Shown piece after piece: positions 3,001 through 19,817 of a DNA stretch of 20,000 nt. Every line of letters starts with the position of its first letter. Within the stretch, counting starts at the first letter, position 1. Source of the stretch: an uncultured virus (IMG/VR IMGVR_UViG_3300030329_002891) (Duplodnaviria; Heunggongvirae; Uroviricota; Caudoviricetes); the IMG/VR virus record IMGVR_UViG_3300030329_002891. One strand, written 5' to 3'. Both the position numbers and the translations under genes were made by a program. The notes beneath the pieces were generated by a model that did not search any database, was not told the DNA's origin, and saw only the letters and a list, made by a program, of their open reading frames with translations.

Positions 3001-6000
3001 TAGACAAAGTCCAAAGGTTGATAGTCAAATTATAAATCAAATTATAATAAATGATTTAAAAAATAATATAACAGTTTTAAATGATGGTAAAAGCCCAAAA
3101 GATTTAGTAATTGAATTTAAAGATTTATTAAAAAGAAATCCTGAAAATGAATTTCTTACCAAAGTATTAGAAATAAAAACACTTAAAAATGGAAATGACG
3201 TTGTAGTCCTTAATAGTATAGAAACAGGAGATCTTGTTTCTCAAGCTAGAATAGAGGAATTTAGAGAAGCGTTTGCTGATTTAAATACTGATGATCAAAA
3301 TCTTATATTTAAATTAGAATACCAATTTAATGGATTTGGATTAACAGGTGCGTATGGATCAGCTCAATCATTTACCCCTTTCTTTAATAAAGAATATATA
3401 GAAAAAATCAATGATTGGATTCAAACAATTGTAGATAACAATCAAACTAAAGAGCCTAGCGGAACAGAGCTAAGTCAAGCAATTTCAGATATAAAAAATA
3501 AGCCACAATCTTATGATGCTAGAAAAGGTATTGAAGAAGCTAGTAAAAATAATAATAATTTTGAAATAAAACTACCTGGCAAAAAAGCTAAAAAGAGAAT
3601 ATATTCTGAAACGTCATATAATAATGATCATTTAGGAACAGGTACTGCTAGAATGACATTTGAAAATTGGAATAAAGATAAAGGAATAGATATATCTAAA
3701 ATAGATAAAAATTCTAAAACTTATGAAATGTTGTTTGACAGATATAATTCTTATTTACATCAGCTAGGCTTAGTAAGAAATATGGAAAACAATCTTCTTA
3801 AAAAACCATTATCTAAATACAGTTTAGAAGGATTGTATGATTTAGCTAGAGATTTAAGAAAGATGGATAATACTGCTAGTAAAGGATTGGCATATGAAGT
3901 TGAAAAAGAAATAGGTCAAAAAGCATTTAAAATGCAAGTTGAAGGCTTTAAGAAAACTAGAGACAGGGAAGGGTTTATTGGATTAAAAAAAGCAGGACTT
4001 AAACAAGGTTATAAATACAATGTGCCTGGAGAAGATGGTGTGCCTCAAGAAGACTTATCTAATTTTAGAGCATGGCTAGGTTCTAACAATATGACATCTA
4101 AAAGACCTGAAATACAATACTTAATTAACGAGGCTCAAAAAGAATACAGAAAGTATCTTAGAAGTTTTAAAAGATATAAGAATATGATAGAGGGAGCTAA
4201 TAATGCTTTAATAAGATCTAAAATGAAAGGTATTAGCGTATTAGAAAGAGTTAGACAAGGTTTTGATCAGAATGCTCGTTATCAATATATATATGGTAAT
4301 ATAGCAACATTAGAAGGTGGTAACATTAGACTGTTTACAGAAGAAGAAATAGCAGAAAATTTTGACAACCTAACACAAGAAGAACGTAACTATTATAATC
4401 AATATAAAGCTGTAGCAGAATTATTATTAGGGGCGCAAGAAACAAATGGCACAGTTGTGCCTGGTATGCAGATGGGTGAAATAGAAAATATGTCTAGGAG
4501 CGGTTTATTTAGCCTTTACGACAGTATGATTGATTCAAGTGACTACAATAGAGTTTTAGTCTATGGAACAGATAAAGACGGTAAGAGGGCTTTAAAAACG
4601 TTTTATGAATGGAAGTATGATGTATATAAAGGAAGAACTAAAAAGCTAAGACTAGACTCTGGTAGAGAAATATTAGAACTTGACAAATTAAGAACTAAAG
4701 CTAAACAATTAAAAGCTAAAGGTAAACATGAAGACGGTACTGATATTATGCTTTCTGATGCAGAATATGACGCATTAGTTAATAACGGAGCTATGTTAAA
4801 AAGAATGGTTGGTTATGAGGCTACTGGTATAGATGCTGAACTTATACAAGAATACGAAAGAAGAAAAGGTGTTAAAGCACAAAAGATAACATATGATATA
4901 AACACTACATTGTTAGAGTTTGCAAGAGGATCTATATTTAGACACGGAGAAAATCTAAATGAAATACCTGACGGTTTTGCAGGCATGGGTAATTTAGCTA
5001 TACTTACAGATTCTATTATTGCATTTAATAAAAATCTAGACAATAAGAATGCGGTTAACTATTTAACAAGATGGTGGAAAGAAGGATTTATAGAAAGAAA
5101 ACAACAGCAAAGCCGTCTTGGAAAGTCAGGAGATAAAGTAATAGATTTATTTGTAAGACTAACATCTTTAAGATTACTTGGGTTTAATATGACTGTTGCT
5201 ACGGGTAATGTATTGGCTGGTAAATATCAAGAATTACGTAAGCGAGGGGGTAAACAATTTATAAAAGGAGAAAAAAGATATTGGGTAGATCGTAAAAAAT
5301 CTTGGAAAATACTTAGAGAAAATAGAATTATAGAATATAGTTTTGACGACTTTGTACATCTTTCTGAGCCTAAAGGAGTGTTTGGTCAAATAGAAAAACT
5401 TTCTTATATATTTATGGATAAAACAGAGGGTTATATACAGGGTGCTGCTTTCTTAGGAGAGTTAACAGATCAAGAATATAACACTGGTAATATATCTGAA
5501 CAGAGAGTAATGCAGATAAATCATAAAATATCTACATTGCATGGAGAAGGATATACGGCATTAGATCAAAACATGTTAGCTATGTATTCTTATGGTAGAG
5601 CATTGTTACAATTTAAAAAATGGTTTGTAACCTTAATACAAGATAGATTTAAAGCAGAAGACATAGATAGATTTGGAGAAGTGAATGTTGGTAGTTATAG
5701 AGCTGCAGGAGAATTTACTGTTAATTTATTTAAACAATTCTTCAAAGGAGAGCTCACAATGGAAAGTATTGTAAATGCATATAACAACTCTAGCGAAAAG
5801 AGACAAAAAGAAATGAAAGCATATATAAACGGTTTAGGTATTGGCGTAACATTGTTATCTTTAATTGCCATAATGGAAGATGATGACGATACAGATCAAG
5901 GCACATTAAGAGCGTTGAAAAAACTTTCTAATGATGTTTTTGTAACAACAGATTTAAAAAGATTTGTAAATTACACTATGGTTCCAGCATCTTTGAGCAC

Positions 6001-6208
6001 AATGAAAAATACTATGAGAATGATGGAGGAGTCTGTAAGAGGTGATAAAATCAAACGTACAGGCCCTTACGGAGAGGCAGGAACATCTAAAGCTTTAAAG
6101 ACAGCTAAGTATGACATATCACCTTATGCGTCTGTTAGAAAAAGTATTGCAAATAGATTATATACAGGCCCACAAGAGAAAAAGGAAACTAGTTCTTTAA
6201 TTAGATAA
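14..6208 (+). CDS. Giant virion-associated two-barrel (DPBB) RNA polymerase, crAss-like/phi14:2 gp66 type; probably 5'-truncated by the window edge
   Basis: Catalytic-loop-like GADLDGD (DLDGD at 1775-1789, D588/D590/D592), preceded by GTRVPAHG (R544 at 1643), matching the RxP...DxDGD layout of beta'-like DPBB. Upstream YLK (K267) and SESAAK (K318) are candidate beta-like DPBB lysines. Frame is open from base 2 (AAC TCT GGG CTA ATG), so the true start probably lies upstream. Confidence 0.85.
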   Translation: MRRFIGEVKDPASLEMANTLNDLTPTELLAYDFFSFLSKYNEGIKNKKETITYDQPIAVFSDKSRRYYIESIIAHNDKNRKLLLSKIKNNPRYNATYKNGKDKVFPFTITNNKIEGIDGAVVKFKKYIKDNKELFQNNEDFNETKNVDAALEAYYTSYIANRFMAQQLFVADHIQTKDQIDYIKRAAGSIAGHTVYDRNIMVEPVIIKDYYKDGAIENDAMGYVLPNQAQAITSKYGVVQKVGSVFKFVYNYTEMEGKHKGKSTYLKFAVHVITPKMESENAHMKNIADVLRARQERVNKISGDPSNLVIAASESAAKMFVGDKNHIYDISPDNFNMDYINAQQDNLYMEGDAKSQMFKFKGLHGEGLGIQLELDKKSDERFFPSQLFYHTATNISNAQEQALVDEMFELRTDVMNINNKQRNEGLIPFNNDSVLKERDLFKSSITEDVYGNLITSMYEYTHPMYPYLNATHNSMATGRITHKGTKMYTKGAIGYQSSSLGYDLKAYEAGLYEGNEKVLASEAIVPEFLEKQGVKRGDVFIGTRVPAHGKVSSSVFIVKDFHDQVPGSASATSNITIPAEVSKNWGADLDGDSIHMNFKWKKGAELNPTKEQAKETNNWKTKSNRFIDAYIDLISRDKKAEITADINFEEDAKIAIKKSKDFYKKGQDKKSSQLTPLGDAKMFEDNVPAKHLVGIIASLQRTFNIMSNSQDALPFDITIKGVDKKVKTTETFNDNKEDKNDPGTWFGVAQLLNIALDNAKWQYAGQLGLDMQSVFSYTMLRRLGYSLNDLSVMFNDPIVKDYMEYKRSKSKNYISNDSEIKQLFEEKSDLFENEFLNFTKNKGIYANLNSIMQQKKIDINLNNLKNSNKKIVKTEQGKVLAMIYSLEKFNQHIINPFSKAFTVHQSIEKNPNELNKVNRAIKEASKPNTNIPLLGKKGIPYTLKDKTINNQIVDHATKLFDTILERASKTDIRYTPYMQDIIEHQDDPTYIPYTNIRQSPKVDSQIINQIIINDLKNNITVLNDGKSPKDLVIEFKDLLKRNPENEFLTKVLEIKTLKNGNDVVVLNSIETGDLVSQARIEEFREAFADLNTDDQNLIFKLEYQFNGFGLTGAYGSAQSFTPFFNKEYIEKINDWIQTIVDNNQTKEPSGTELSQAISDIKNKPQSYDARKGIEEASKNNNNFEIKLPGKKAKKRIYSETSYNNDHLGTGTARMTFENWNKDKGIDISKIDKNSKTYEMLFDRYNSYLHQLGLVRNMENNLLKKPLSKYSLEGLYDLARDLRKMDNTASKGLAYEVEKEIGQKAFKMQVEGFKKTRDREGFIGLKKAGLKQGYKYNVPGEDGVPQEDLSNFRAWLGSNNMTSKRPEIQYLINEAQKEYRKYLRSFKRYKNMIEGANNALIRSKMKGISVLERVRQGFDQNARYQYIYGNIATLEGGNIRLFTEEEIAENFDNLTQEERNYYNQYKAVAELLLGAQETNGTVVPGMQMGEIENMSRSGLFSLYDSMIDSSDYNRVLVYGTDKDGKRALKTFYEWKYDVYKGRTKKLRLDSGREILELDKLRTKAKQLKAKGKHEDGTDIMLSDAEYDALVNNGAMLKRMVGYEATGIDAELIQEYERRKGVKAQKITYDINTTLLEFARGSIFRHGENLNEIPDGFAGMGNLAILTDSIIAFNKNLDNKNAVNYLTRWWKEGFIERKQQQSRLGKSGDKVIDLFVRLTSLRLLGFNMTVATGNVLAGKYQELRKRGGKQFIKGEKRYWVDRKKSWKILRENRIIEYSFDDFVHLSEPKGVFGQIEKLSYIFMDKTEGYIQGAAFLGELTDQEYNTGNISEQRVMQINHKISTLHGEGYTALDQNMLAMYSYGRALLQFKKWFVTLIQDRFKAEDIDRFGEVNVGSYRAAGEFTVNLFKQFFKGELTMESIVNAYNNSSEKRQKEMKAYINGLGIGVTLLSLIAIMEDDDDTDQGTLRALKKLSNDVFVTTDLKRFVNYTMVPASLSTMKNTMRMMEESVRGDKIKRTGPYGEAGTSKALKTAKYDISPYASVRKSIANRLYTGPQEKKETSSLIR

Positions 6209-11356: not shown

Positions 11357-12082
11357 ATGGCATTAGGTCTTGGAATAGCAAATGAATTATTAGAAACACC
11401 TACTTTATGGAGCCCCTATAATCAGGGTTTAGCTAATAATTTAGAATTTTGGTATGAAAATAATAATGATATTACTACTAGCGCTTGGCTAGATCAATCA
11501 AAAAATAATAATGATGCAACGCAAGGAACCTCATTAAGGCAGCCTGATGTTTTTCAAGGGGGCTTACGTTTTAACGGGACAAGCGATTATATGGATATGG
11601 ATAGTAAATTTACCATAGCGCAAGGAGGCCCGTTTGCTGTATTTATGGTAATGAAATTGGCGAGTGCATCTAATTGTGTATTTTTATCTGATAGTGCTAG
11701 TGAGTTTTTTGAAATTATGACAACAAAAAAATTTAGATTTAAAGGAAGTAACGGAGGAGCTTTAACAACAGTAATGACGTTTTCAGATGTTCAATTTAAT
11801 ATTGGTGAAGTAATAATTCTTTCTGTATTGCGAGATCCTGAAGGTAATTTCTTTTTGTATAAAGATGGAGAGCAAGTGGTTCCTGACGGAGGAAGTTCAC
11901 AAAATTTAAATAACGATAGAGGGTTTGATATTTTTAATTTAGGAGTAAGAAATGATAATGATAGACTTTTTGAAGGTATTATATACGAAATTTTTATGTA
12001 TAATAAAAAACTTGATGATCCTCAATTAGATAACGCACACGAATATTTAAAATCAAAATTTAGCGCATTTGCAGATGATTAA
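11357..12082 (+). CDS. LamG-like lectin-fold fibre/adhesin with N-terminal LGLG peptide
   Basis: MALGLGIA start; LEFWY...WLDQSKNNNDATQ...P...LRFNG and FEGIIYEIFMYNKKL...YLKSKF are characteristic of phage LamG-like domains. Confidence 0.75.
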   Translation: MALGLGIANELLETPTLWSPYNQGLANNLEFWYENNNDITTSAWLDQSKNNNDATQGTSLRQPDVFQGGLRFNGTSDYMDMDSKFTIAQGGPFAVFMVMKLASASNCVFLSDSASEFFEIMTTKKFRFKGSNGGALTTVMTFSDVQFNIGEVIILSVLRDPEGNFFLYKDGEQVVPDGGSSQNLNNDRGFDIFNLGVRNDNDRLFEGIIYEIFMYNKKLDDPQLDNAHEYLKSKFSAFADD

Positions 12083-13208
12083 TAAAATAAAAATTATAAT
12101 ATTAATTTTAATAATGGTTTCTTGTGCGACACCAAAAAAATGTTGCGCGCAAAAAGACTATAAAAAATATTTTGAAGATTTTAATTTAGAGAAGACTTTA
12201 AAAAGACATATAAAATTTTCTACAATTTATGGTGCTGTTAATGGAGGAACATCTGTTTCAGATGTAAAAACATATGCGGTTTCTACAGGACAATTAGAAG
12301 AGGGGGTTATAGAAACACCATTTGATTATTCTGTAACTTTAGGAATTAGAAAAATAGCTAGATTTGGATATGAAAATAAAGCACAAACATTTTATGACGG
12401 AACAGAATCTAATTATACAGATGCTGCAACTGTTGGTAAAGTTCAGGGCTTTGAATATTTATTTGAAGTAGACTATGCAAGACAACAAGGCGTAGACTAT
12501 ATTGATCAACATCATTTTATTAGATATAGTTCAGATGATAATTGTGAAGGCCCATATTGTATAGATCATTTTGCTGCAAAATTAGAATATTTAAAAGATG
12601 GTTTTGCTGATGTAGAATATTTTGAATTATCAGAAAGATATAGATATAAAAAAAATAAATACTTGGCTTTAAGCGTAGGCGCTGCTCACAGATTGGCAGA
12701 ACCTTACGGGTATAACCCACTAGAGGAATGGATTTTGGATAATGGGAATTTACATTACACTTACTTGGCAATACAAGAAGGCTACACAATAGACGTTGCT
12801 AATAGTGAGTATAAAGATCCAGACGGAAATATAGTGGCTAACAGTTCAGAGGTGTGGAAAGAAGTGGTTATACCGCAAGTATTAGCTAATTATACACAAA
12901 GAAAAAGAAATGAATTAAGTAAGCAAATTCAACATTCAATAATATTAGGATTTGATTACTATCATTATAATAAAAACAAATGGATACACGCTTGGGGTAA
13001 TCTTTTACCTTATCACTACGACGACGGAAACGAATTTTCTTATCATAAATACAATAATGGTGAACAATGGTACGATTACTCAGGCGGTGTAATATACGGA
13101 GTGAAAGTAGATAGACATCTAGGTTATTTTGTAGAAGCAAAATATAATAGATATTGGAACAGAGAATGGTATGATTTTAAATTTGGTGTAAATTATGTTA
13201 TTTTCTAG
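12075..13208 (+). CDS. Exported protein, probable outer-membrane beta-barrel (377 aa)
   Basis: Likely start is ATG 12075 rather than TTG 12069. Basic-hydrophobic leader with VSC lipobox-like site. Aromatic-rich alternating strands and C-terminal YDFKFGVNYVIF beta-signal-like end. Confidence 0.6.
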   Translation: MINKIKIIILILIMVSCATPKKCCAQKDYKKYFEDFNLEKTLKRHIKFSTIYGAVNGGTSVSDVKTYAVSTGQLEEGVIETPFDYSVTLGIRKIARFGYENKAQTFYDGTESNYTDAATVGKVQGFEYLFEVDYARQQGVDYIDQHHFIRYSSDDNCEGPYCIDHFAAKLEYLKDGFADVEYFELSERYRYKKNKYLALSVGAAHRLAEPYGYNPLEEWILDNGNLHYTYLAIQEGYTIDVANSEYKDPDGNIVANSSEVWKEVVIPQVLANYTQRKRNELSKQIQHSIILGFDYYHYNKNKWIHAWGNLLPYHYDDGNEFSYHKYNNGEQWYDYSGGVIYGVKVDRHLGYFVEAKYNRYWNREWYDFKFGVNYVIF

Positions 13209-13229
13209 TATTAACTTAAAAATTTAAAA

Positions 13230-13706
13230 ATGAAAAAATTATTATTAACAATTAGTTTAGTATTTGCAACAATGTTTGCTTCAGCACAATTTATGGCAAT
13301 TACCACTATTAACAAAGTAGAAGGCGTAAAAGCAACACCTCCTAGCACAACTGAAGTATATGAAGGTGATGAATGTCCTACGTCTGACACAGAAGATTCT
13401 TATAATATAACTGACAAAATTGGAATAGGTTATATGGTAAACGAAAAAATAATGGTAGGAGTTACTAAAGACGGTGAAGAAGCTTATGAATTAATAGGAA
13501 GATATATGATTAAAGATGGTTTGTGGGCTACCTGTATATATAATCATGATGAAAATTCTGATGCTGAAATGAAAGATAAACTAGATTTAGGTATAGGATA
13601 TTCTATGAAAATTTGGAAAGAACTTTATATTGAGCCTAACTATACAATGCCAATGAAAGAAGATGGTGAGGGTAGTTTTAATTTAGGTATAGCATACAAA
13701 TTTTAA
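13230..13706 (+). CDS. Small outer-membrane beta-barrel protein (OmpA-TM/PorT-like, about 8 strands or fewer)
   Basis: Sec signal MKKLLLTISLVFATMFASA|Q. Strands IGIGYM, LIGRY, LDLGIGYS, LYIEPNY. Terminal FNLGIAYKF BAM beta-signal. Confidence 0.8.
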   Translation: MKKLLLTISLVFATMFASAQFMAITTINKVEGVKATPPSTTEVYEGDECPTSDTEDSYNITDKIGIGYMVNEKIMVGVTKDGEEAYELIGRYMIKDGLWATCIYNHDENSDAEMKDKLDLGIGYSMKIWKELYIEPNYTMPMKEDGEGSFNLGIAYKF

Positions 13707-13707
13707 T

Positions 13708-14076
13708 ATGTATACTTACAACATTAAACTAGATAGGGTTATTGATGGGGATACTATTGATGCCAATATAGATTTAGGGTTTGATACATGGGTAAAAAAA
13801 AGAGTGAGGTTTTCGGGGGTTAATACCCCTGAATCCCGCACTAGGGATCTTGAAGAAAAAGCAAAAGGCTTAGCTGCAAAAGACAGAGTTAAACAATTAT
13901 TAGAAGGCAGTAATAGAATACAATTAACTTCATATGGGGTTGGCAAATATGGAAGGTGTTTAGGGGAGTTACATATAGACGTTGTAGACGGAAAAGAAAA
14001 AATAACAATGGAAAGTGTAAATGAATTATTAATCAAAGAGGGCCATGCCGTAGAGTATCATGGAGGAAAAAGATAA
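13708..14076 (+). CDS. Thermonuclease (staphylococcal nuclease, SNase) family protein
   Basis: RVIDGDT, RVRFSGVNTPE, KYGRCLG and VNELLIKEGHA match the SNase motif order. No signal peptide. Confidence 0.88.
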   Translation: MYTYNIKLDRVIDGDTIDANIDLGFDTWVKKRVRFSGVNTPESRTRDLEEKAKGLAAKDRVKQLLEGSNRIQLTSYGVGKYGRCLGELHIDVVDGKEKITMESVNELLIKEGHAVEYHGGKR

Positions 14077-14080
14077 AATT

Positions 14081-14254
14081 ATGATAAATTGGATAAACGG
14101 TTTTAATGCTGGTAATAAAAAAGAAAAATATACATTAAATTTTAGATTAGGAACTTTTACTGTTTTAGAAATAAAAGCATGTTTGTTTTGTGATGAAAAT
14201 TGTACAGCTAAAAGATTTAGATTTATGATTTTTAATTTAGGTCTTGAGTTTTAA
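14081..14254 (+). CDS. Small hypothetical protein (57 aa)
   Basis: ATG 14081 lies 4 nt after the SNase stop and is preferred over the overlapping 14060 start. Contains CLFCDENC. Stop is coupled to the next start (TAATG). Confidence 0.6.
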   Translation: MINWINGFNAGNKKEKYTLNFRLGTFTVLEIKACLFCDENCTAKRFRFMIFNLGLEF

Positions 14255-14487
14255 TGACAATGAAAGAAGACATATCATTAATGCAACATAGAATGGACTC
14301 AATGGACGATAAATTAGATAAAATGGACGCTAAATTAGATATGTTAACTGAAAAGTTATTAAATCCAGATAATGGAGTAACAGCAAGAGTTAATAAAAAT
14401 ACATCATACCGAAAGGTTATGACGAAAGCATTATGGGTAATATATACTGTTACTATAGGTTTAATTATAAAATTATTTTGGGGATAA
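14254..14487 (+). CDS. Coiled-coil protein with C-terminal transmembrane helix (XhlA/holin-like architecture)
   Basis: Heptad repeat MDSMDDKLDKMDAKLDML, then hydrophobic ALWVIYTVTIGLIIKLFW. Confidence 0.6.
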   Translation: MTMKEDISLMQHRMDSMDDKLDKMDAKLDMLTEKLLNPDNGVTARVNKNTSYRKVMTKALWVIYTVTIGLIIKLFWG

Positions 14488-14768
14488 TGTCTAAAGAATT
14501 AAATGAAGATACTAGTTTTAAAGTAAGTATAAAAACGCTTATTGCTATAGGTTTTGGTATGGCAACTTTAATATCTATGTGGTTTATGCTACAAGCTGAT
14601 ATAGAAGAGGCTAAAGAATTACCTGTGCCTCCTGCTCCTGATGTAACACGTATGGAGTTTGATATGAAAGATCAAATGATACGAAACACTATTATGGAAA
14701 CACAAGAAGACGTAAAGGAAATTAAAGAGTCTATGGAAAAAATAGAAGATAAATTATATAATAGATAA
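14487..14768 (+). CDS. Single-pass membrane protein with C-terminal coiled coil (93 aa)
   Basis: Start at ATG 14487 (TAATG overlap). TM LIAIGFGMATLISMWFML, Pro linker, coiled coil VKEIKESMEKIEDKL. Confidence 0.65.
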   Translation: MSKELNEDTSFKVSIKTLIAIGFGMATLISMWFMLQADIEEAKELPVPPAPDVTRMEFDMKDQMIRNTIMETQEDVKEIKESMEKIEDKLYNR

Positions 14769-15130
14769 TGGAAGACGAATTACCTGCTTGGAAAATGTAT
14801 GTTTTATATCTTGGTATTTTAGGATTAGTTTTATGGAGCAGTTTAGCTTATGGTCAAATAGAAGCTAAATATTTTAATGCAGAATGGAATAAATCTAATG
14901 ATGTAGACTGGTTTATGAAATTAGCAGACTGTAAAACTAAATCAGTGGTAGATATAAGTAAGGATACAGAATCGCAAAGTAAATATAAAATAGCGGTAAT
15001 ACCTACTATTATTATATTTAAAGATGGTGAAGAGGTTGCCAGATTTCAAGCGGATCTTAGTTTTAAAATGGTAGCAACAAGGGAAGAAATACAAGAAGAA
15101 ATTGACAACATACTAATGAGTGACTTTTAA
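14768..15130 (+). CDS. Exported thioredoxin-fold protein lacking CxxC
   Basis: Hydrophobic leader ending SLAYG|Q. FNAEWNKSN sits where FxAxWCxxC normally is. KYKIAVIPTIIIFKDGEEVARF matches the Trx cis-Pro/beta-hairpin region. Confidence 0.8.
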   Translation: MEDELPAWKMYVLYLGILGLVLWSSLAYGQIEAKYFNAEWNKSNDVDWFMKLADCKTKSVVDISKDTESQSKYKIAVIPTIIIFKDGEEVARFQADLSFKMVATREEIQEEIDNILMSDF

Positions 15131-15131
15131 T

Positions 15132-15362
15132 ATGTGGGACTTATTTAAAAATAAAAACGAAATAAACGAAAAAAATATAATTGGATTTATATCTTTTGGT
15201 ATTATGGTTTTGTTTGCTTTTGCAGATCTTATTACTAGTTTTATATATTCAGGTGATGAGGCATATTTATTAATTAATGATACTATATATAATTCATTTG
15301 TTTTTGTTACATTAGGATGTTTTGGAATTAGCACTTTTGAAAAAATTAAAACTAAAGAATAA
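15132..15362 (+). CDS. Two-TM small membrane protein (holin-like)
   Basis: Start ATG 15132. TMs IIGFISFGIMVLFAFADLI and FVFVTLGCFGI. Charged C-terminus EKIKTKE. Confidence 0.6.
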   Translation: MWDLFKNKNEINEKNIIGFISFGIMVLFAFADLITSFIYSGDEAYLLINDTIYNSFVFVTLGCFGISTFEKIKTKE

Positions 15363-17824
15363 TGAAAAAATTATTATTATTACTATTGTTACCTATAATA
15401 ACTTTTGCGCAAAAAGAAGTAGTTGTGCATGTTAAAACTGATACATGGCCATCTGAAACGGCATGGGTTTTATATAAAGATGCATACCAGGGAGACACTA
15501 TAGGATACGTTCCTTATGGTTATTATACATCGTCTAACTTTATGCATAGAGATACTATTTATATGGCTGATAGTATTACTAATATATCATTTGTTATATT
15601 TGATAGTTATGGAGACGGAATAGTTAATGGAGAATATTATGTAACAATATGTGGTGATACTGTAGTGAGCTATCCTGTATCTACATTTACAAATGGTTTA
15701 ATACACAATAGAACTGTACCTCAATGCATGCCTCAACCACCTCCAACACAAACAGTTGGAGCTAAAGTTATTATTAATTTAGATCAATATCAAAGCGAAA
15801 CTAGCTGGGATATAAAAGATACAAATGGAGTAGTATACGCTTCAGGGGGAGGGTACTATACGCAACCTGATTATGCAACTATAGTAACTCCCGTTCAAAT
15901 ACCTAAAGGCCAGATGATATTTACTATATACGATACCTATGGAGACGGTTTAAATGGGGCGTTATGGCAAGGTCAAGATGGTTCTTATTTTGTAAAGCAG
16001 TGTAATGATACTTTAATATACGGTACAAATCCTGCATTCGGAAATGATACATCTCATATTTTTGTATCTGATTCTTGTCCACCTATATTAGGATGTACAG
16101 ATGATGATTATGTAGAATGGAATCCTTTTGCAACGGTAGATGACGGGAGCTGTCAAACATTAAAAATATTTGGATGTATAGACTCAACTATGTTTAATTA
16201 CGATCCAGGAGCTAATACAATGCAACTTATAGATACATGCACGTTTAAATTAGTATTACATGATTTAATGGGTAATGGATGGGTTGGATCACATTTAAAA
16301 CTTATACATCCTGATACATCATATCAATTTACTCATACAGGAGGATTTGATGACGTGTACTATGTAGGATTAACAGCTCCAGATCCAATAACATTTAGAT
16401 TTCATATATCTTCACAAGCAAGTTTAACTACAATAGAGTGTGGTTTTACATTTATAAATCCTGAAGGGGATACATTAATAAGTATACAGCCTCCATTTAT
16501 ACAACCTTTATTACCTTATCAGCTAATAACAAATTGTGGTAATACATGTGAAGAAAAAGTATTTGGATGTTTAGATTCTTTAGCCTTTAACTATGATACT
16601 TTAGCAAATACAGATGACGGTAGTTGTTATTATACTCCAGGATGCATGAACTCATCTTATTTAGAATATTATACCCAAGGTTTTGTTGCGGATTATGATG
16701 ATGGTACGTGTATAACGTTAGCTGTATGGGGATGTATAGATAGCACAGCATTTAATTATGATTCATTAGCTAATATTAGTAACGGAGGATGTATACCTGT
16801 TATAACTGGATGCATGCAACCTTTGGCGTTTAATTATAATCCAAACGCTAATACGCCAGATACTTGTATAGCTGTAGTTTATGGATGTACTTCACCAATA
16901 GCTTTTAATTATAATCCATTAGCAAATACCGATGACGGGTCTTGTGAAGGAGTGGTTTATGGTTGTACTGACACATCTGCTTTTAATTGGAATCCAAATG
17001 CTAATGTAGACGACAGTAGTTGTGTACCTGTTATATATGGATGTATAAATCCAGTTATGTTTAATTATTGTGATACGTGTAACACAAATGACGGAAGCTG
17101 TATAGAAGTACTATATGGCTGTACTGATAGTACAATGTTTAATTATAATCCTTTAGCTAATGTTAACAATAATTCTTGTGTTCCTTATATTTATGGCTGT
17201 ACTAACCCTATTATGCTCAACTACAATCCAACAGCAAATACAGAAGATTTTAGTTGTATTCCTTTTATTTACGGTTGCATGGATAGCACTGCTCTTAACT
17301 ATGATTCGCTGGCTAATACTGACAACGGTTCGTGTATTGCTATTATTCAAGGCTGCATGGATCCGAATGCGTGGAACTACGATTCGTTAGCAAATGTGAA
17401 TTTTGGACATGATTCTTTAGGGTGTCTTTATGCTGCTAATTGTACAGCGACAGAGCCAGGAGAGCCTTTCTTTTTAAATGATGAATGTTATGCTTGGGTT
17501 ATAGAAGTAGACGAGTATTGCTGTGAAAACGAATGGGATTCCATATGTCAATTAACATATAATCATTGTTATGATGGATGGATAGGCAATCCTCCTCCAT
17601 CAAGACTTGTTAATAAAGATATAAAAATATATCCAAATCCCACAACAGGAATAGTTGTGTTTAACAATTTAGTAGATGTAGCTGTTTATAACGCATATGG
17701 AAAATTAATTATTAATAAAAACGGCATAACTAAAATAGATTTGTCAAAATATAGCAATGGTATTTATAATATAAATGTTATATTTATGGGTAATAAAAGC
17801 AATCATAGAATAATAAAACAATAA
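15362..17824 (+). CDS. Secreted Cys-repeat surface protein with T9SS (Por secretion) type A C-terminal sorting domain
   Basis: Signal MKKLLLLLLLPIITFA|Q. Two N-terminal repeats (D..PSETAW/QSETSW...F.I.D.YGDG). 13 GC...C repeats. C-terminal IYPNPTTG...VYNAYGKLI...IDLSKYSNGIYNINV...RIIKQ has the TIGR04183-type CTD motif order. Confidence 0.85.
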   Translation: MKKLLLLLLLPIITFAQKEVVVHVKTDTWPSETAWVLYKDAYQGDTIGYVPYGYYTSSNFMHRDTIYMADSITNISFVIFDSYGDGIVNGEYYVTICGDTVVSYPVSTFTNGLIHNRTVPQCMPQPPPTQTVGAKVIINLDQYQSETSWDIKDTNGVVYASGGGYYTQPDYATIVTPVQIPKGQMIFTIYDTYGDGLNGALWQGQDGSYFVKQCNDTLIYGTNPAFGNDTSHIFVSDSCPPILGCTDDDYVEWNPFATVDDGSCQTLKIFGCIDSTMFNYDPGANTMQLIDTCTFKLVLHDLMGNGWVGSHLKLIHPDTSYQFTHTGGFDDVYYVGLTAPDPITFRFHISSQASLTTIECGFTFINPEGDTLISIQPPFIQPLLPYQLITNCGNTCEEKVFGCLDSLAFNYDTLANTDDGSCYYTPGCMNSSYLEYYTQGFVADYDDGTCITLAVWGCIDSTAFNYDSLANISNGGCIPVITGCMQPLAFNYNPNANTPDTCIAVVYGCTSPIAFNYNPLANTDDGSCEGVVYGCTDTSAFNWNPNANVDDSSCVPVIYGCINPVMFNYCDTCNTNDGSCIEVLYGCTDSTMFNYNPLANVNNNSCVPYIYGCTNPIMLNYNPTANTEDFSCIPFIYGCMDSTALNYDSLANTDNGSCIAIIQGCMDPNAWNYDSLANVNFGHDSLGCLYAANCTATEPGEPFFLNDECYAWVIEVDEYCCENEWDSICQLTYNHCYDGWIGNPPPSRLVNKDIKIYPNPTTGIVVFNNLVDVAVYNAYGKLIINKNGITKIDLSKYSNGIYNINVIFMGNKSNHRIIKQ
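16091..17425 (+). repeat. Coding tandem repeat, about 26 aa units GC(T/M/I)D...(F)NY.P.AN.DDGSC, 13 copies
   Basis: Counted GC-initiated units: two at 16091 onward (the second interrupted by an inserted domain) and eleven consecutive from 16565 to 17425. Units are diverged at DNA level. Confidence 0.9.
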
Positions 17825-17828
17825 TAAT

Positions 17829-18215
17829 ATGTTAAGTCAAATATTTAGTAGCGGTGCTGCAGAATTAGTTAAAGGAGTTGGCGGAGTAATTGATGATCTT
17901 CATACTTCTGAAGAAGAAAAGCTGCAAGCTGAGCAAAAAATAAAAGATATGATAATGGGTTATGAAGCAGAAATGCAAAAACAAATAACTGAAAGATGGA
18001 AAGTTGATATGAAATCTGACTCATGGTTAAGTAAAAATATAAGGCCAATGGTTTTAATTTTTCTTGTTGTAAGTACTGTGCTTTTGATTTTTATAGATGC
18101 TGGAGCTATTACATTTGAAGTAAAAGCATCATGGGTAGATTTATTACAATTAGTATTAATAACTGTTATAGGGGCTTATTTTGGAGGAAGATCTCTAGAA
18201 AAAGTAAAAAAATGA
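17829..18215 (+). CDS. Holin, 3-TM GTA-type family
   Basis: DDLHTS.EEKL, RW..DM.SDSWLSKNIRP, two TMs and YFGGRSLEK match the GTA_holin_3TM pattern. Confidence 0.82.
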   Translation: MLSQIFSSGAAELVKGVGGVIDDLHTSEEEKLQAEQKIKDMIMGYEAEMQKQITERWKVDMKSDSWLSKNIRPMVLIFLVVSTVLLIFIDAGAITFEVKASWVDLLQLVLITVIGAYFGGRSLEKVKK

Positions 18216-18503: not shown

Positions 18504-18893
18504 ATGGCAAAAAACTATACATTAAACTGTTCTCTTAGTATGACTGCTAATTCTGCAACAGGGTATTCACAAGCACAAAGTGGATCTTATACACTAAATA
18601 TAACAGGTGTAGATCAAATAGCAACAGGTAGAATAGATGTCGCTCATGATGGAGACTCAACAGTTATGGCTGCTCCAGGATACGGAAGAGTGATTTATGT
18701 TAAAAATTTAGATGATACTAATTTTGTAAAAATTTATGATGGAGCATCATCAGCTGCTGATCTAATAGGTATATTAGAGCCAGGACAATTTTTAATGACA
18801 ATTATAAGAGGGACAGCAACAACAACTGCAAAAGCAGATACAGCAACTGTAACTATAGAGTATGCTGCAATAGAAATAGACGCTAACGCATAA
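18504..18893 (+). CDS. Small beta-sandwich virion protein candidate, paralog A
   Basis: 129 aa, Thr/Ala/Ser rich. IYVKNLDDTNFVKI...ILEPGQF aligns with the next ORF. Confidence 0.55.
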   Translation: MAKNYTLNCSLSMTANSATGYSQAQSGSYTLNITGVDQIATGRIDVAHDGDSTVMAAPGYGRVIYVKNLDDTNFVKIYDGASSAADLIGILEPGQFLMTIIRGTATTTAKADTATVTIEYAAIEIDANA

Positions 18894-18909
18894 AATAAAA
18901 TAAAATAAT

Positions 18910-19335
18910 ATGGCAACACAATCATTATCAGTAACAGTTTCAGGAAGTATATCATTAAGTGATTCAGATGGAAATCAAGTATTATCATTTTCACCATCTT
19001 TTACAACAAATAGCACAACTGTAGACTCTAATATATTACACACAGGAGAAATTTTAGTAGGCACATCAGCAACAACTATTTCTAGTGCGACTAATAATAA
19101 AGATATGATTTTTACATTTGTAAAAAATGTAGACACAGATTATCCAATAGCAGTACAGCCAGATGGTGATGTAATTGCAGATTTAAAACCAGGAGAGTGT
19201 ATGTTTTCACCAGTACATGTAGATGGTGCTGGAGACGGCTCTACAAACTTAGATTTAATAGCAACTACTGCTGCGCAAAAAGCACAATATTTATTATGTG
19301 ATGGTCCTGATACTGGAATAGCATCAGATGACTAA
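18910..19335 (+). CDS. Small beta-sandwich virion protein candidate, paralog B
   Basis: 141 aa. TFVKNVDTDYPIAV...DLKPGEC aligns with the previous ORF. Confidence 0.55.
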   Translation: MATQSLSVTVSGSISLSDSDGNQVLSFSPSFTTNSTTVDSNILHTGEILVGTSATTISSATNNKDMIFTFVKNVDTDYPIAVQPDGDVIADLKPGECMFSPVHVDGAGDGSTNLDLIATTAAQKAQYLLCDGPDTGIASDD

Positions 19336-19346
19336 AATATAAATAA

Positions 19347-19817
19347 ATGAAACTTAAGGTAGTAAGATTTAGTAGCCAGGAGGATAGTACTTCTGGCTTA
19401 CTTTTTTTAGAGCAAAATAATAAGTTAGAATTTTTATGTTATACATTAGAAGATGAATATAGAAAGTCTAAAGTTAGGGGAGAAACAAGAGTACCTGCTG
19501 GTGTATATAAAATACAATTAAGAAAAGAAGGTGGATTCCATCAAAGATATACCAAGAAATATGGTAGTATGCATAAAGGAATGTTACACGTTACTAATGT
19601 ACCAGGTTTTGAATATATTCTTATACATACTGGTAATACTGATGAACACACTGCTGGATGTCTTCTTGTGGGTGATTCGCAAGAAAATAATGCAATCATC
19701 AAAGATGGTTTCATTGGTAAATCCAATAATGCGTATAAAAGAATATATCCAGATATTGCAAAAGCTGTAGAAACAGAAGGAGTAATTATAGAGTATATAG
19801 ATCTTGATACTAAATAA
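19347..19817 (+). CDS. DUF5675-family protein, L,D-transpeptidase-like; putative endolysin
   Basis: ST.GLL...CYTLED...ETRVPAGVY...VPGFEYILIHTGNT...TAGCLLVG, with a His...Gly-Cys catalytic arrangement. Lies near the holin. Confidence 0.8.
   Translation: MKLKVVRFSSQEDSTSGLLFLEQNNKLEFLCYTLEDEYRKSKVRGETRVPAGVYKIQLRKEGGFHQRYTKKYGSMHKGMLHVTNVPGFEYILIHTGNTDEHTAGCLLVGDSQENNAIIKDGFIGKSNNAYKRIYPDIAKAVETEGVIIEYIDLDTK

Follow-up and report, generated by a model that had tools for sequence, protein, structure and literature searches.

In phages of Proteobacteria, the task of breaking or fusing the outer membrane is carried out by spanins. Two-component spanins such as lambda Rz/Rz1 combine an inner-membrane helical partner (N-in/C-out) with an outer-membrane partner, a Pro-rich lipoprotein of 40–60 aa; the two genes are neighbours and occur together with those for holin and endolysin, and their products remove the outer membrane in the last lysis step (available text of Kongari et al. 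2018, PMC6139136). Phage-encoded cargo for type IX secretion systems (T9SS) and phage Q-rule proteins are already published as well (available parts of PMC7468147, PMC6949934 and PMC10367356). The former include the type A cargo of "Cryophage" (Bellas et al. 2020) and the ORFs with a sorting domain in crAss-like phages (de Jonge et al. 2019), which are glycoside hydrolases, PA14 or BACON proteins. The latter come from temperate oral phages of Porphyromonas gingivalis (Matrishin et al. 2023) and have been read as an adaptation to the host Sec pathway and as possible outer-membrane modifiers.

The locus analysed here, part of a stretch of 20,000 nucleotides (the window), resembles each of these systems in some respects. 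Three of its genes, g09, g14 and g15 (the trio), are predicted to encode an outer-membrane barrel, an inner-membrane helix protein and an exported thioredoxin (Trx) fold. Like two-component spanins, the trio has an inner-membrane N-in/C-out helical partner and an outer-membrane partner, encoded by adjacent genes that occur with holin and endolysin genes, and by analogy its task may be the same. It differs from spanins, as the available text of PMC6139136 describes them, in that its outer-membrane partner is an integral 12-strand barrel of 350 aa, with lipidation in some members at most; an extra third subunit is a periplasmic Trx fold, g14 has only 58 residues in the periplasm, and the gene order is reversed. 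Sequence similarity between the trio and spanins was sought and none was found. Like the Cryophage cargo and the crAss-like ORFs, the secreted cargo g17 has the C-terminal sorting domain specific to Bacteroidota, varies among phage variants and lies among late genes, but it consists of beta-sandwich domains and Cys repeats with no enzyme domain. The available parts of PMC7468147 and PMC6949934 make no mention of a barrel, helix protein and dead Trx beside the cargo; those of PMC10367356 share with our exported set the phage signal peptides that expose Gln, but concern different proteins and describe no conserved trio. We did not find the trio described in the literature searched, and if the lysis role discussed below is true, it is possibly an undescribed way to open the outer membrane.

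Gene order and co-conservation

Positions 12075–17824 form a closely coupled run of nine genes (g09–g17), all on the + strand (Table 1). Its junctions are overlaps of 1–8 nt or gaps of 1–21 nt when homologue-supported starts are used (ATG at 12075 for g09, 14081 for g12, 14487 for g14 and 15132 for g16). Every element listed for this run in the initial annotation was found in place, including the three small membrane proteins (g13, g14 and g16), each with a hydrophobic segment by a Kyte–Doolittle 19-residue mean of at least 1.6.

Table 1. Features of the gene run and of its downstream neighbourhood
Feature	Position	Strand	Description and basis
g09	12075–13208	+	Predicted exported outer-membrane barrel, 12 strands; trio gene 1 (AF2 model, fold searches)
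g10	13230–13706	+	Small exported protein, candidate 8-strand outer-membrane barrel; accessory (weak profile matches)
g11	13708–14076	+	Staphylococcal-nuclease-type endonuclease (PF00565 E 1.3e-10, phrog_452 E 3.1e-38)
g12	14081–14254	+	Small accessory protein (start from homologue N-termini)
g13	14254–14487	+	Small accessory protein, C-terminal membrane segment 59–77
g14	14487–14768	+	Predicted inner-membrane protein, 93 aa; trio gene 2 (alignments A3, A8; hydrophobic segment)
g15	14768–15130	+	Predicted exported Trx fold without CxxC; trio gene 3 (profile vs PDB; alignment A4)
g16	15132–15362	+	Small membrane protein (hydrophobic segment)
g17	15362–17824	+	Secreted cargo, 820 aa, 41 Cys (Pfam, NCBIfam, AF2 of residues 1–400, fold searches)
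g17, Sec leader ...TFA↓Q	15362–15409	+	
g17, three beta-sandwich domains	residues 17–390	+	AF2 of residues 1–400, fold searches
g17, ~13 two-cysteine repeats (~26 residues each) and Cys-rich knot	residues 392–736, nt 16535–17569	+	
g17, T9SS type A C-terminal domain	residues 756–820, nt 17627–17821	+	
g18	17829–18215	+	Holin, 4 nt after g17 (phrog_3427 E 3.2e-32)
g22	19347–19817	+	DUF5675, candidate endolysin of the window's subgroup (PF18925 E 3.1e-28)

Parts of the run are co-conserved over hundreds of viral contigs. Among 79 loci seeded with g09, g14 occurs in 75 and g15 in 73; among 80 seeded with g15, g14 occurs in all and the barrel gene in 72, that is, in 72 of the 72 informative loci, the remaining eight being cut by the locus end. 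The trio genes abut or overlap by 1 nt. Two distant relatives, L087 and L088, retain the order barrel, helix protein, Trx fold at 30–31% identity in the barrel and 42–52% in g14, and no T9SS cargo gene was found in either; since the trio is kept at ~30% barrel identity without the cargo, it is independent of it. The synteny expected by the initial annotation thus holds for g09, g14 and g15, which travel together, but not for g10–g13 and g16, present in only 15–26 of the 79 g09-seeded loci, and its view of the nine genes as one system has to be given up on these counts and on the two cargo-free loci. The region is two separable things, a conserved trio and the variable cargo g17.

The trio alignments have mean column identities of 65–76% (76% for g09, alignment A1; 72% for g14, alignment A3), and the trio is 64–89% identical while the neighbouring tail-fibre genes are replaced, g04–g08 being found in 1–4 of 79 loci. 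The matches in genome_contigs were all (12/12) metagenome bins of mixed taxa with no isolate among them, the 30 nearest Atlas clusters were all viral, and no cultured phage was found to carry the barrel or g14. As far as sequence distribution can tell, the barrel, g14 and g15 are an old, phage-only set.

Among the accessory genes, g10 (26/79 loci; in relatives often on the opposite strand and kilobases off) ends in ...AYKF. Its weak PDB profile matches were outer-membrane barrels in eight of eight cases (E 0.016–0.14), and with Pfam OMP_b-brl 17 of 24 members of its family gave matches at E ≤ 1, none of which reached the cut-off (best 1.2e-4). g11 (25/79) has no signal peptide and is accessory, outside the envelope set. 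No family match was found for g12 (22/79); g13 (15/79) weakly matches phrog_1193 "hemolysin" (E 0.0042), and g16 (17/79) lies directly upstream of the holin gene in several relatives.

The exported proteins

The AlphaFold2 model of g09 (mean pLDDT 70.6, pTM 0.64) has 12 long antiparallel strands and a highly conserved insert of 76 residues between strands 7 and 8 (residues 211–286, nt 12699–12926). Among the matches listed, a Foldseek search of the PDB returned outer-membrane barrels or channels only, and an index-free fold search gave KdgM (Z 15.3, 171/171 residues, rmsd 3.4), the EstA barrel (Z 14.9) and NanC (Z 14.8). With KdgM/NanC and autotransporter translocators (PDB 4pr7, 2wjr, 3kvn, 1uyo) the model shares strand number and barrel geometry (Z 14–15, rmsd 3.4–4.5 Å), whereas sequence identity is 4–16%; unlike them g09 has the conserved insert, and its turns are long on the side presumed to be periplasmic. 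It lacks a passenger domain. g09 homologues number 3361 clusters (305 at 50% identity), and g09 matched no Pfam, NCBIfam or PHROG family. It ends in ...NYVIF, and of the two barrel candidates with terminal Phe proposed earlier, g09 is now a predicted 12-strand barrel from model and fold matches, while g10 stays a candidate on weaker evidence.

In g14, a short N-terminus (MSKELNEDT) is conserved; next come one membrane segment, a linker rich in Pro and variable in length, and 42 C-terminal residues free of Pro and Gly. The protein has no PDB or family match. The assignment of g15 as an exported Trx fold is supported by its signal peptide followed by Gln (...AYG↓Q) and by its family profile, which matched 157 PDB sequences at E ≤ 1 (best E 8.3e-7), the best 60 of the 157 being nearly all thioredoxins or other Trx-fold proteins. 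The window's g15 falls just under the Pfam cut-off (22.3 vs 23.5), and distant members lie above it (27.3, 29.4 and 26.7 bits). As in classical thioredoxins the fold is detectable by profile and the cis-Pro region (IPT) is retained, but g15 is exported, and it has FNAEWN in place of WCGPC, the CGPC stretch being aligned to a gap. CxxC is present in none of the 35 aligned members, and is absent in all members seen, including those distant members and lineages at 33–34% identity. Members of the window's subgroup lack the first 30 residues of the fold as well; the C-terminal MSDF is invariant.

The T9SS tail of g17 proposed in the initial annotation scores above both the PF18962 (28.7 bits, cut-off 27; 34.4 on the C-terminus alone) and the TIGR04183 (25.4, cut-off 23) thresholds. 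It is a minority feature of the cargo family, as PF18962 was found in 17 of 120 homologue clusters, among the matches listed, and in none of eight cargo C-termini from related loci. The N-terminal 380 aa are conserved (1695 clusters). The cargo as such is hypervariable: its length ranges over 611–975 aa, some subgroups carry a MAM domain, and contigs break within it. In comparison with the 41 Cys of g17, the neighbouring g01 (2064 aa) has none, and in seven related loci the Cys repeats turn up as well in giant upstream proteins without a signal. g17-like matches were found in 63 of 79 g09-seeded and 67 of 80 g15-seeded loci, a few of them only on other Cys-repeat proteins. The best reading of g17 is a separate, variable, adhesin-like module. 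It would be exported by Sec and then, in the window's phage, handed over to the host T9SS; it probably binds something at or near the cell surface, and could serve masking or adhesion.

Gln, which makes up 3.2% of residues in proteins of the window, follows the signal peptide in all four that are exported and, with cleavage sites assigned by eye and heuristic, in 71 of 72 relatives of g15, 24 of 26 of g10 (...ASA↓Q in the window) and 29 of 29 of g09. The three Q-rule sites and the possible fourth noted at the outset therefore stand as far as Gln is concerned, but CCA↓Q of g09 may be a lipoprotein leader instead, because a lipobox (VSC in the window, then ATPKKCCA↓Q) followed by xxPKxCCxQ is found in 15 of 29 g09 relatives as well as in the window. 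The idea that these products are made for host export agrees with the Sec leaders with Gln at +1, one predicted and one candidate barrel, and, in g17, the T9SS tail with 41 Cys as against none in g01; a single phage would thus direct several of its own proteins to host membranes and surface. Gln after the signal peptide has been described for Bacteroidota (available text of Bochtler et al., PMC5837995). Because Gln follows every signal peptide and a T9SS tail is present, the host of this uncultured ocean phage is, by these sequence marks, a member of the Bacteroidota.

Possible roles of the trio

Downstream of the run, the holin g18 scores 24.5 bits against PF11351, just below the 24.8 cut-off, and matches genes annotated as holin in Vibrio phages by tblastn. 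g22 is a candidate endolysin because in relatives it takes the downstream place that holds Peptidase_M15_3 or phrog_894 endolysins in other subgroups. Of the 37 loci that extend 6 kb or more downstream, 35 have a holin and/or endolysin homologue at a downstream distance of 0.3–8.1 kb; these 37 loci are non-independent through shared ancestry. In L087 a Peptidase_M15_3 endolysin gene overlaps the start of the barrel gene by 4 nt, and in L083 a PG_binding_1 + Amidase_2 endolysin gene follows 30 nt after the Trx gene, so members of two unrelated endolysin families lie right beside the same trio. g09 is the sole lipobox ORF in the window; no plausible small lipoprotein gene was found on the coding strand of the 79 g09-seeded loci, nor any classical o-spanin candidate in up to 21 kb searched per contig. 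g14 has the topology of an i-spanin, with a membrane segment at the N-terminus, then a linker rich in Pro and a stretch free of Pro and Gly, a layout also described for Rz (available text of Kongari et al. 2018, PMC6139136).

These observations lead us to propose, tentatively and at somewhat less than an even chance, that the trio is a spanin-like, envelope-spanning lysis device and the cargo a separate, variable, adhesin-like module. g09 would be inserted into the outer membrane as a 12-strand barrel, g14 would sit in the inner membrane with its helical tail in the periplasm, and g15 would be a soluble, redox-dead Trx fold in the periplasm. Contacts among the three could form an envelope-spanning complex late in infection; with the cell wall already taken away by holin and endolysin, this complex would then break the outer membrane or fuse it. 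Among the six functions listed in the initial annotation, the context favours non-spanin outer-membrane disruption for the trio. Several points speak against a lysis role. g09 is no small lipoprotein but a large integral barrel; the portion of g14 in the periplasm is, from its length, too short to span this space alone; in 18 of the 37 loci only an endolysin was found, often 4–8 kb off with cargo and other genes between; and the structures that match the barrel best, those of sugar-specific porins and barrels of autotransporters, do not point to disruption of a membrane. Lysis genes are expected to be far less conserved than the trio, so its column identity also argues against lysis and may reflect an enzymatic role or a conserved partner in the host.

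Alternatively, in line with the main idea of the initial annotation (surface remodelling or superinfection exclusion), barrel, helpers and cargo might alter the surface of the infected cell so that neither other phages nor the phage's own progeny could adsorb to it or to its debris. The module comes straight after LamG genes of tail-fibre type or a giant protein of virion type, and lambda lom, phi80 cor and T5 llp occupy comparable places. Cargo and putative fibres share Cys-repeat modules, as a decoy would, and the cargo is hypervariable; such roles have been proposed for phage T9SS cargo (Bellas et al., PMC7468147) and for Q-rule proteins of P. gingivalis phages (Matrishin et al., PMC10367356), in the available parts of these papers. 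However, a receptor-specific blocker should covary with the fibres, whereas the trio stays alike beside replaced ones; the trio exists without cargo, and the barrel insert proposed to be surface-exposed hardly varies, an unusual state for a surface that is under selection. We consider this explanation unlikely, though far from negligible.

A role in cargo handling, with the barrel anchoring the T9SS cargo or helping to export it as PorP/SprF do for type B and the dead Trx holding the 41-Cys cargo in the periplasm, has in our judgement a small chance of being correct. The cargo gene lies a few kb from the trio in most loci, redox-inactive Trx domains can bind substrates (as does the b' domain of protein disulfide isomerase), and PorV, of the T9SS translocon, is among the structural matches of the barrel, albeit far down (6h3i_F, Z 9.0, rank 37). 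Yet the two distant lineages keep the trio without cargo, none of 25 barrel-family members matches PorP_SprF or another outer-membrane family at E ≤ 10, and most cargo relatives have no recognisable T9SS tail. The window's own tail is type A, which to our knowledge needs no dedicated barrel. We give similarly little credence to a phage-encoded channel, in which the barrel would be a specific porin for taking in a nutrient or letting out a product while infection lasts, and g14 and g15 its accessories. KdgM and NanC, both 12-strand porins, match the barrel best in structure, its predicted strands contain conserved Arg, Lys and Glu, and porin-like phage barrels are catalogued (BFVD; Pfam Phage_OMP PF24653, seen as a lead), but a shared fold is not evidence of shared function, and a channel would explain neither why the barrel is strictly coupled to a helix protein of the inner membrane and to a dead Trx nor why it lies beside endolysins.

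That the block is an assembly chimera, or host DNA fused to phage DNA, as the initial annotation had considered, is refuted for practical purposes, and nothing was found in its favour: the same gene order recurs in the 79 and 80 loci on many independent viral contigs, GC is even across the stretch (0.28–0.35), and a sequencing run from another study, which contains 0.97 of the stretch's sampled words, yields contigs with 0 differences and even depth (64–84) that span the g08/g09 (12075) and the g17/g18 (17824–17829) junctions.

Conservation of a three-gene unit and its genomic setting

The object of interest in this region is a trio of genes and not the whole nine-gene run that the initial annotation had presented as a candidate envelope-remodelling operon using Sec, BAM and T9SS. 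The trio comprises g09, a predicted outer-membrane barrel, g14, an inner-membrane helix protein, and g15, a dead thioredoxin (a Trx fold without CxxC). This gene order is shared by 79 loci seeded with g09 and by a further 80 seeded with g15, and the block is therefore not an assembly chimera; contigs from another study, spanning both block ends with 0 differences at a depth of 64–84, confirm this. Among the 79 g09-seeded loci, g14 was found in 75, g15 in 73 and sequence resembling the cargo gene g17 in 63, compared with 15–26 for the barrel candidate g10, the nuclease g11 and the small accessory genes g12, g13 and g16, and 1–4 for the fibre-like genes g04–g08; these counts are lower bounds, as many loci end shortly past the barrel. 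Of the 80 g15-seeded loci, all contained g14 and 72 contained the barrel; among the 8 misses one is cut upstream, six end inside the cargo gene and one ends just past g16. Both sets of counts indicate a unit made up of barrel, helix protein and dead thioredoxin, whose genes mostly keep this order and abut. The co-conservation named as a check on the run holds for the trio, which travels together, and fails for g10–g13 and g16.

The trio is also intact in distant lineages with barrels 30–31% identical, where the thioredoxins likewise lack CxxC (L083, L087 and L088 in the table below). The genes after the L087 thioredoxin lie on the other strand and include no cargo. In L087 and L083 the trio thus has endolysins of two unrelated families as immediate neighbours. 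In L086 a small membrane protein matching a mechanosensitive-channel beta-domain and a kinase of the zeta-toxin/AAA_33 type are encoded ahead of a barrel that is very distant, at 27% identity.

The barrel family is large, with 3361 clusters at 90% identity and 305 at 50%, and 328 barrel-encoding stretches were found in one viral collection. The 30 nearest Atlas clusters are all viral. Prokaryote genome collections yielded 12 matches, all in metagenome bins of at least six unrelated taxa and 0 in isolates, which we read as misbinned phage contigs.

The window has the gene content typical of a late region in a phage genome. Its long ORFs are on the + strand without exception, GC content is even (0.25–0.36), and the encoded proteins include LamG-type fibre-like proteins (PF13385; phrog_8510, "virion structural protein"), the holin g18 (phrog_3427, E 3.2e-32) and a DUF5675 protein. 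The tight coupling of the run was correctly described, with overlaps of 1–8 nt or gaps of 1–21 nt between homologue-supported starts. An uninformative scan of the region returned 51 promoter-like sites compared to 60.5 expected, using models without Bacteroidota promoters, and 3 terminator-like sites compared to 2.5 expected. The giant protein g01 matched no Pfam, PHROG or NCBIfam family, and in other subgroups giant proteins of 2188–3216 aa precede the trio. Small paralogous proteins of 120–150 aa, starting MAT...L(T/S)..., occur in 1–3 copies near the module in all subgroups.

Several studies have marine metagenome runs that contain near-identical DNA. One metatranscriptome run contained 0.06 of the sampled words and contigs in 25 of 30 bins, mostly at 90–95% likeness, for which DNA carry-over is a possible source; we do not take this as a sign of transcription. 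GenBank phage records gave no match, either by tblastn with g09, g14, g01 and a distant barrel or by blastn with the DNA of g14–g15. The nuclease g11 is the sole part of the region with DNA-level likeness to annotated phages; blastn returned 37 records, nearly all Synechococcus and Prochlorococcus cyanophages, at 69–71% identity over approximately 140–155 nt. A virion protein of the related locus L021 (phrog_9863, encoded by a gene outside the window) matched 29 records, all 29 from crAss-type gut, Flavobacterium or Cellulophaga phages, all below 60% identity and at 27–29% in 12 of them, so that a crAss-like identity of the phage is borne out in part at most. None of 26 neighbouring ORFs taken from the relatives matched a capsid, portal or terminase family in PHROG.

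Coordinates and gene content of features in the window and in related loci
Feature	Position	Strand	Description
Gene run	window 12075–17824	+	Tightly coupled
g01	window 14–6208	+	2064 aa, 0 Cys, one hydrophobic segment near residue 1940
g09 leader	window 12075–12155		Lipobox type
g11	window 13708–14076		Nuclease
MAT...L(T/S)... paralogues	window 18504–19335; L021:14097–14465; L064:17594–18929; others		No family
Trio locus	L087		Giant protein, Peptidase_M15_3 endolysin (4-nt overlap with barrel start), barrel, 94-aa g14 relative (42% identical), thioredoxin (27.3 bits)
Trio locus	L088		Barrel, g14 relative, thioredoxin (29.4 bits)
Trio locus	L083		Cargo with strong T9SS tail (50.2 bits), barrel, g14, thioredoxin, PG_binding_1 + Amidase_2 endolysin
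Ordinary thioredoxin	L083:16267–16524		WCGPC, no signal peptide
Kinase and small membrane protein	L086:8831–9990		Before very distant barrel
46-aa ORF	L021:14792–14932		Signal peptide and lipobox (LVGC)
Upstream Cys-repeat proteins	L019:4073–4327; L009:5472–6284; L021:5478–6329; L002:4270–4629; L015:6625–7428; L020:5253–6128; L041:3680–4114
Row of basic proteins, DUF6321 protein, PAP2-superfamily protein (lipid phosphatase type)	L064:11722–14226; also L037, L044, L011

Predicted structures and leaders of the exported proteins

The export signal, the even number of antiparallel strands and the C-terminal aromatic residue (beta-signal) together mark g09 as a predicted barrel protein. An AlphaFold2 model from an alignment of 29 relatives (pLDDT 70.6, pTM 0.64) has 12 long antiparallel strands and an insert at 211–286, and the window protein terminates in ...NYVIF; among the 29 aligned members F is the usual last residue, with R in several. 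All PDB matches listed by Foldseek were outer-membrane barrels or channels, and an index-free fold search had as its top matches KdgM (Z 15.3, 171/171 residues, rmsd 3.4), the EstA barrel (Z 14.9), NanC (14.8) and NalP (14.1). None of 25 family members matched any Pfam family at E ≤ 10, with PorP_SprF and other outer-membrane families included; at the level of Pfam models g09 does not fall among the PorP/SprF-type barrels of T9SS. Two barrel candidates had been named; g09 is borne out as a predicted barrel, and g10 stays a candidate with sub-threshold matches. PF13505 (OMP_b-brl) matched 17 of 24 g10 family members, every one under the cut-off, and a PDB profile search gave eight weak matches (E 0.016–0.14), all to outer-membrane barrels.

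The three small membrane proteins of the initial annotation correspond to g13, g14 and g16, each with one strong hydrophobic segment. No PDB sequence matched g14 at E ≤ 10. The exported Trx fold of g15 was also recovered, as the family profile reached a best E of 8.3e-7 against the PDB and the 60 matches listed were nearly all thioredoxins or Trx-fold proteins; the window protein scored 22.3 with Pfam against a cut-off of 23.5, and distant members scored above it. The CxxC redox site is absent from 35 of 35 aligned members and from 4 of 4 further relatives. FNAxWN occupies the place of the thioredoxin WCGPC, and HMMER aligns the CGPC stretch to a gap. One odd 340-aa match on a 1.9-kb contig was the only fusion seen, and this weakly indicates that g15 has no recurrent fusion. 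An ordinary thioredoxin is encoded on the same L083 contig as the dead exported one and may be the source of the dead copy.

Gln follows the leader in 4 of 4 exported proteins and in nearly all of their relatives, compared with a Gln share of 3.2% among window residues. Gln at +1 is presented by Bochtler et al. (PMC5837995) as a Bacteroidetes-specific rule. The N-terminus of g09 is hydrophobic. Read by a heuristic, the leaders of all 29 aligned members were either of the type followed by Gln or of the lipobox type. The family includes full-length members with as little as 29% identity, nearly all with leaders followed by Gln. The site CCA before Gln had been noted as a possible one. Gln does follow the leader, which is, however, a lipobox and then xxPKxCCxQ in the window and in 15 of the 29 relatives; the other 14 lack this block and keep a plain Ala-Gln site. 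These two types, plain Ala-Gln and lipobox with xxPKxCC(A/S)Q, alternate among the related ORFs of L001–L079. A lipobox-PKxCCSQ leader is also found on 2 of 54 cargo-type ORFs, whose relatives have a plain FSQ leader. The lipobox-PKxCC leader looks like a swappable module.

The cargo protein

The T9SS sorting domain noted in g17 (820 aa) was verified with PF18962 (28.7 bits, cut-off 27; 34.4 on the C-terminus alone) and TIGR04183 (25.4, cut-off 23). Its Sec leader is MKKLLLLLLLPIITFA followed by Gln, and a similar leader is present in about 50 of 54 related ORFs. Judging from sorting domain and Sec leader, g17 would be a T9SS type A cargo. It contains 41 Cys in 820 residues, including about 13 two-cysteine repeats, whereas its neighbour g01 has none in 2064; this contrast fits a protein folding outside the cytoplasm. 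Cargo length ranges from 611 to 975 aa, and conservation of the first 380 residues extends to 1695 clusters. AlphaFold2 models these residues as three beta-sandwiches. A resemblance to multi-C2 ferlins was rejected (Foldseek TM only 0.11–0.14), and an index-free search gave a best Z of 7.4, with none ≥ 8 and no enzyme fold seen. The fold matches of this modelled part reflect a common sandwich arrangement only.

A Pfam T9SS tail was found in 17 of the 120 cargo clusters listed, and PF18962 in 0 of 8 C-termini from related loci; the other cargo relatives looked at have a shorter tail, ITDLLGR...LFYIYDDGTVEKKxIK, which Pfam misses. In other subgroups the cargo begins with a MAM domain. The two-cysteine repeats also occur in large upstream proteins of seven related loci; the three read at their N-termini (L019, L009 and L021) lack a signal peptide and are possibly fibre proteins. 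The module is thus common to exported proteins and to others that presumably belong to the virion. The variation in length, tail and MAM domain, together with the repeats elsewhere, indicates that the cargo is a variable, binding-type module. Cargo and trio differ both in distribution and in rate of change.

Six g15-seeded viral contigs (L096, L101, L102, L104, L110 and L116) end inside the cargo gene, which suggests that cargo repeats or strain-level variation break assemblies. In other subgroups trio and cargo are separated by a series of small and strongly basic proteins, several of which end in Cys.

By its sequence features the cargo would show that phages can use host type IX secretion, a point already in print. 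Phage-encoded T9SS cargo appears in the pertinent passages of Bellas et al. (PMC7468147), T9SS sorting domains in crAss-like phages in those of de Jonge et al. (PMC6949934), and Q-rule proteins in P. gingivalis phages in those of Matrishin et al. (PMC10367356).

Possible roles of the trio

We read the trio as a spanin-like or exclusion-type phage envelope module. It would form an envelope-spanning set with one part per membrane and a soluble part between. This layout, the changing endolysin neighbours and the absence of a classical spanin from the stretches searched lead us to favour, tentatively, participation in the final step of lysis. Among closer relatives, homologues of a holin, an endolysin or both lie 0.3–8.1 kb downstream in 35 of the 37 loci with enough downstream sequence and never upstream, although the 37 loci share ancestry and are not 37 independent events. 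A search of the window and of the coding strand in the 79 loci (at most 21 kb of contigs 33–95 kb long) turned up no small lipoprotein gene of the o-spanin type.

As in two-component spanins, g09 and g14 lie side by side in most loci and the trio is near or beside holin or endolysin genes. An i-spanin is oriented N-in, C-out and has a helical periplasmic domain; g14, judged from sequence, has a single membrane segment at its N-terminus and ends in a stretch free of Pro and Gly, but its putative periplasmic part is only 58 residues. An o-spanin is a small lipobox lipoprotein, whereas the only lipobox ORF of the window is the 377-aa barrel, and 14 of 29 relatives of that barrel lack a lipobox. 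The shortness of the periplasmic part of g14 and a barrel in place of an outer-membrane lipoprotein both speak against a lysis role, as do the unusually strong conservation of the trio and its distance of several kb from the lysis genes in many loci. Complex prediction for the barrel (29–379) and g14 (36–93) with g15 (30–120) as partner, run without controls, gave scores of 0.19 and 0.00 against a mark of 0.32 and speaks neither for nor against contact among the three proteins.

With more reserve, we suggest that, next to spanins and disruptin-type peptides, the trio could be a third class of device with which phages disrupt the outer membrane. It would be built around an integral beta-barrel inserted by host BAM, specific to Bacteroidota phages and widespread in ocean viral DNA. 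To our knowledge, it has not been worked out how Bacteroidota phages cross the outer membrane when infection ends. The trio is conserved, phage-only, common and located beside endolysins of different families, and is thus a concrete candidate for this missing step. According to Table 1 of Kongari et al. (PMC6139136), a search of 677 phages of Gram-negative hosts detected no spanin in 91. The set of barrel, helix protein and dead thioredoxin was not found in the open-access literature searched.

The observations of the initial annotation were confirmed overall and its interpretation was supported in part. The exclusion or masking it proposed is less likely than a role in lysis and would concern mainly the cargo; should the trio instead serve exclusion or act at the surface, it would be among the most widespread devices of that kind in marine phages. 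A part for the trio in handling the cargo is improbable, given that trios exist without cargo, and a porin role for the barrel, suggested by nothing but its modelled fold, is equally hard to credit.

The endolysin gene of L021 contains, in a different frame, an ORF of 46 aa that encodes a signal peptide and a lipobox; chance could account for this ORF, or it may be a small embedded lipoprotein gene.
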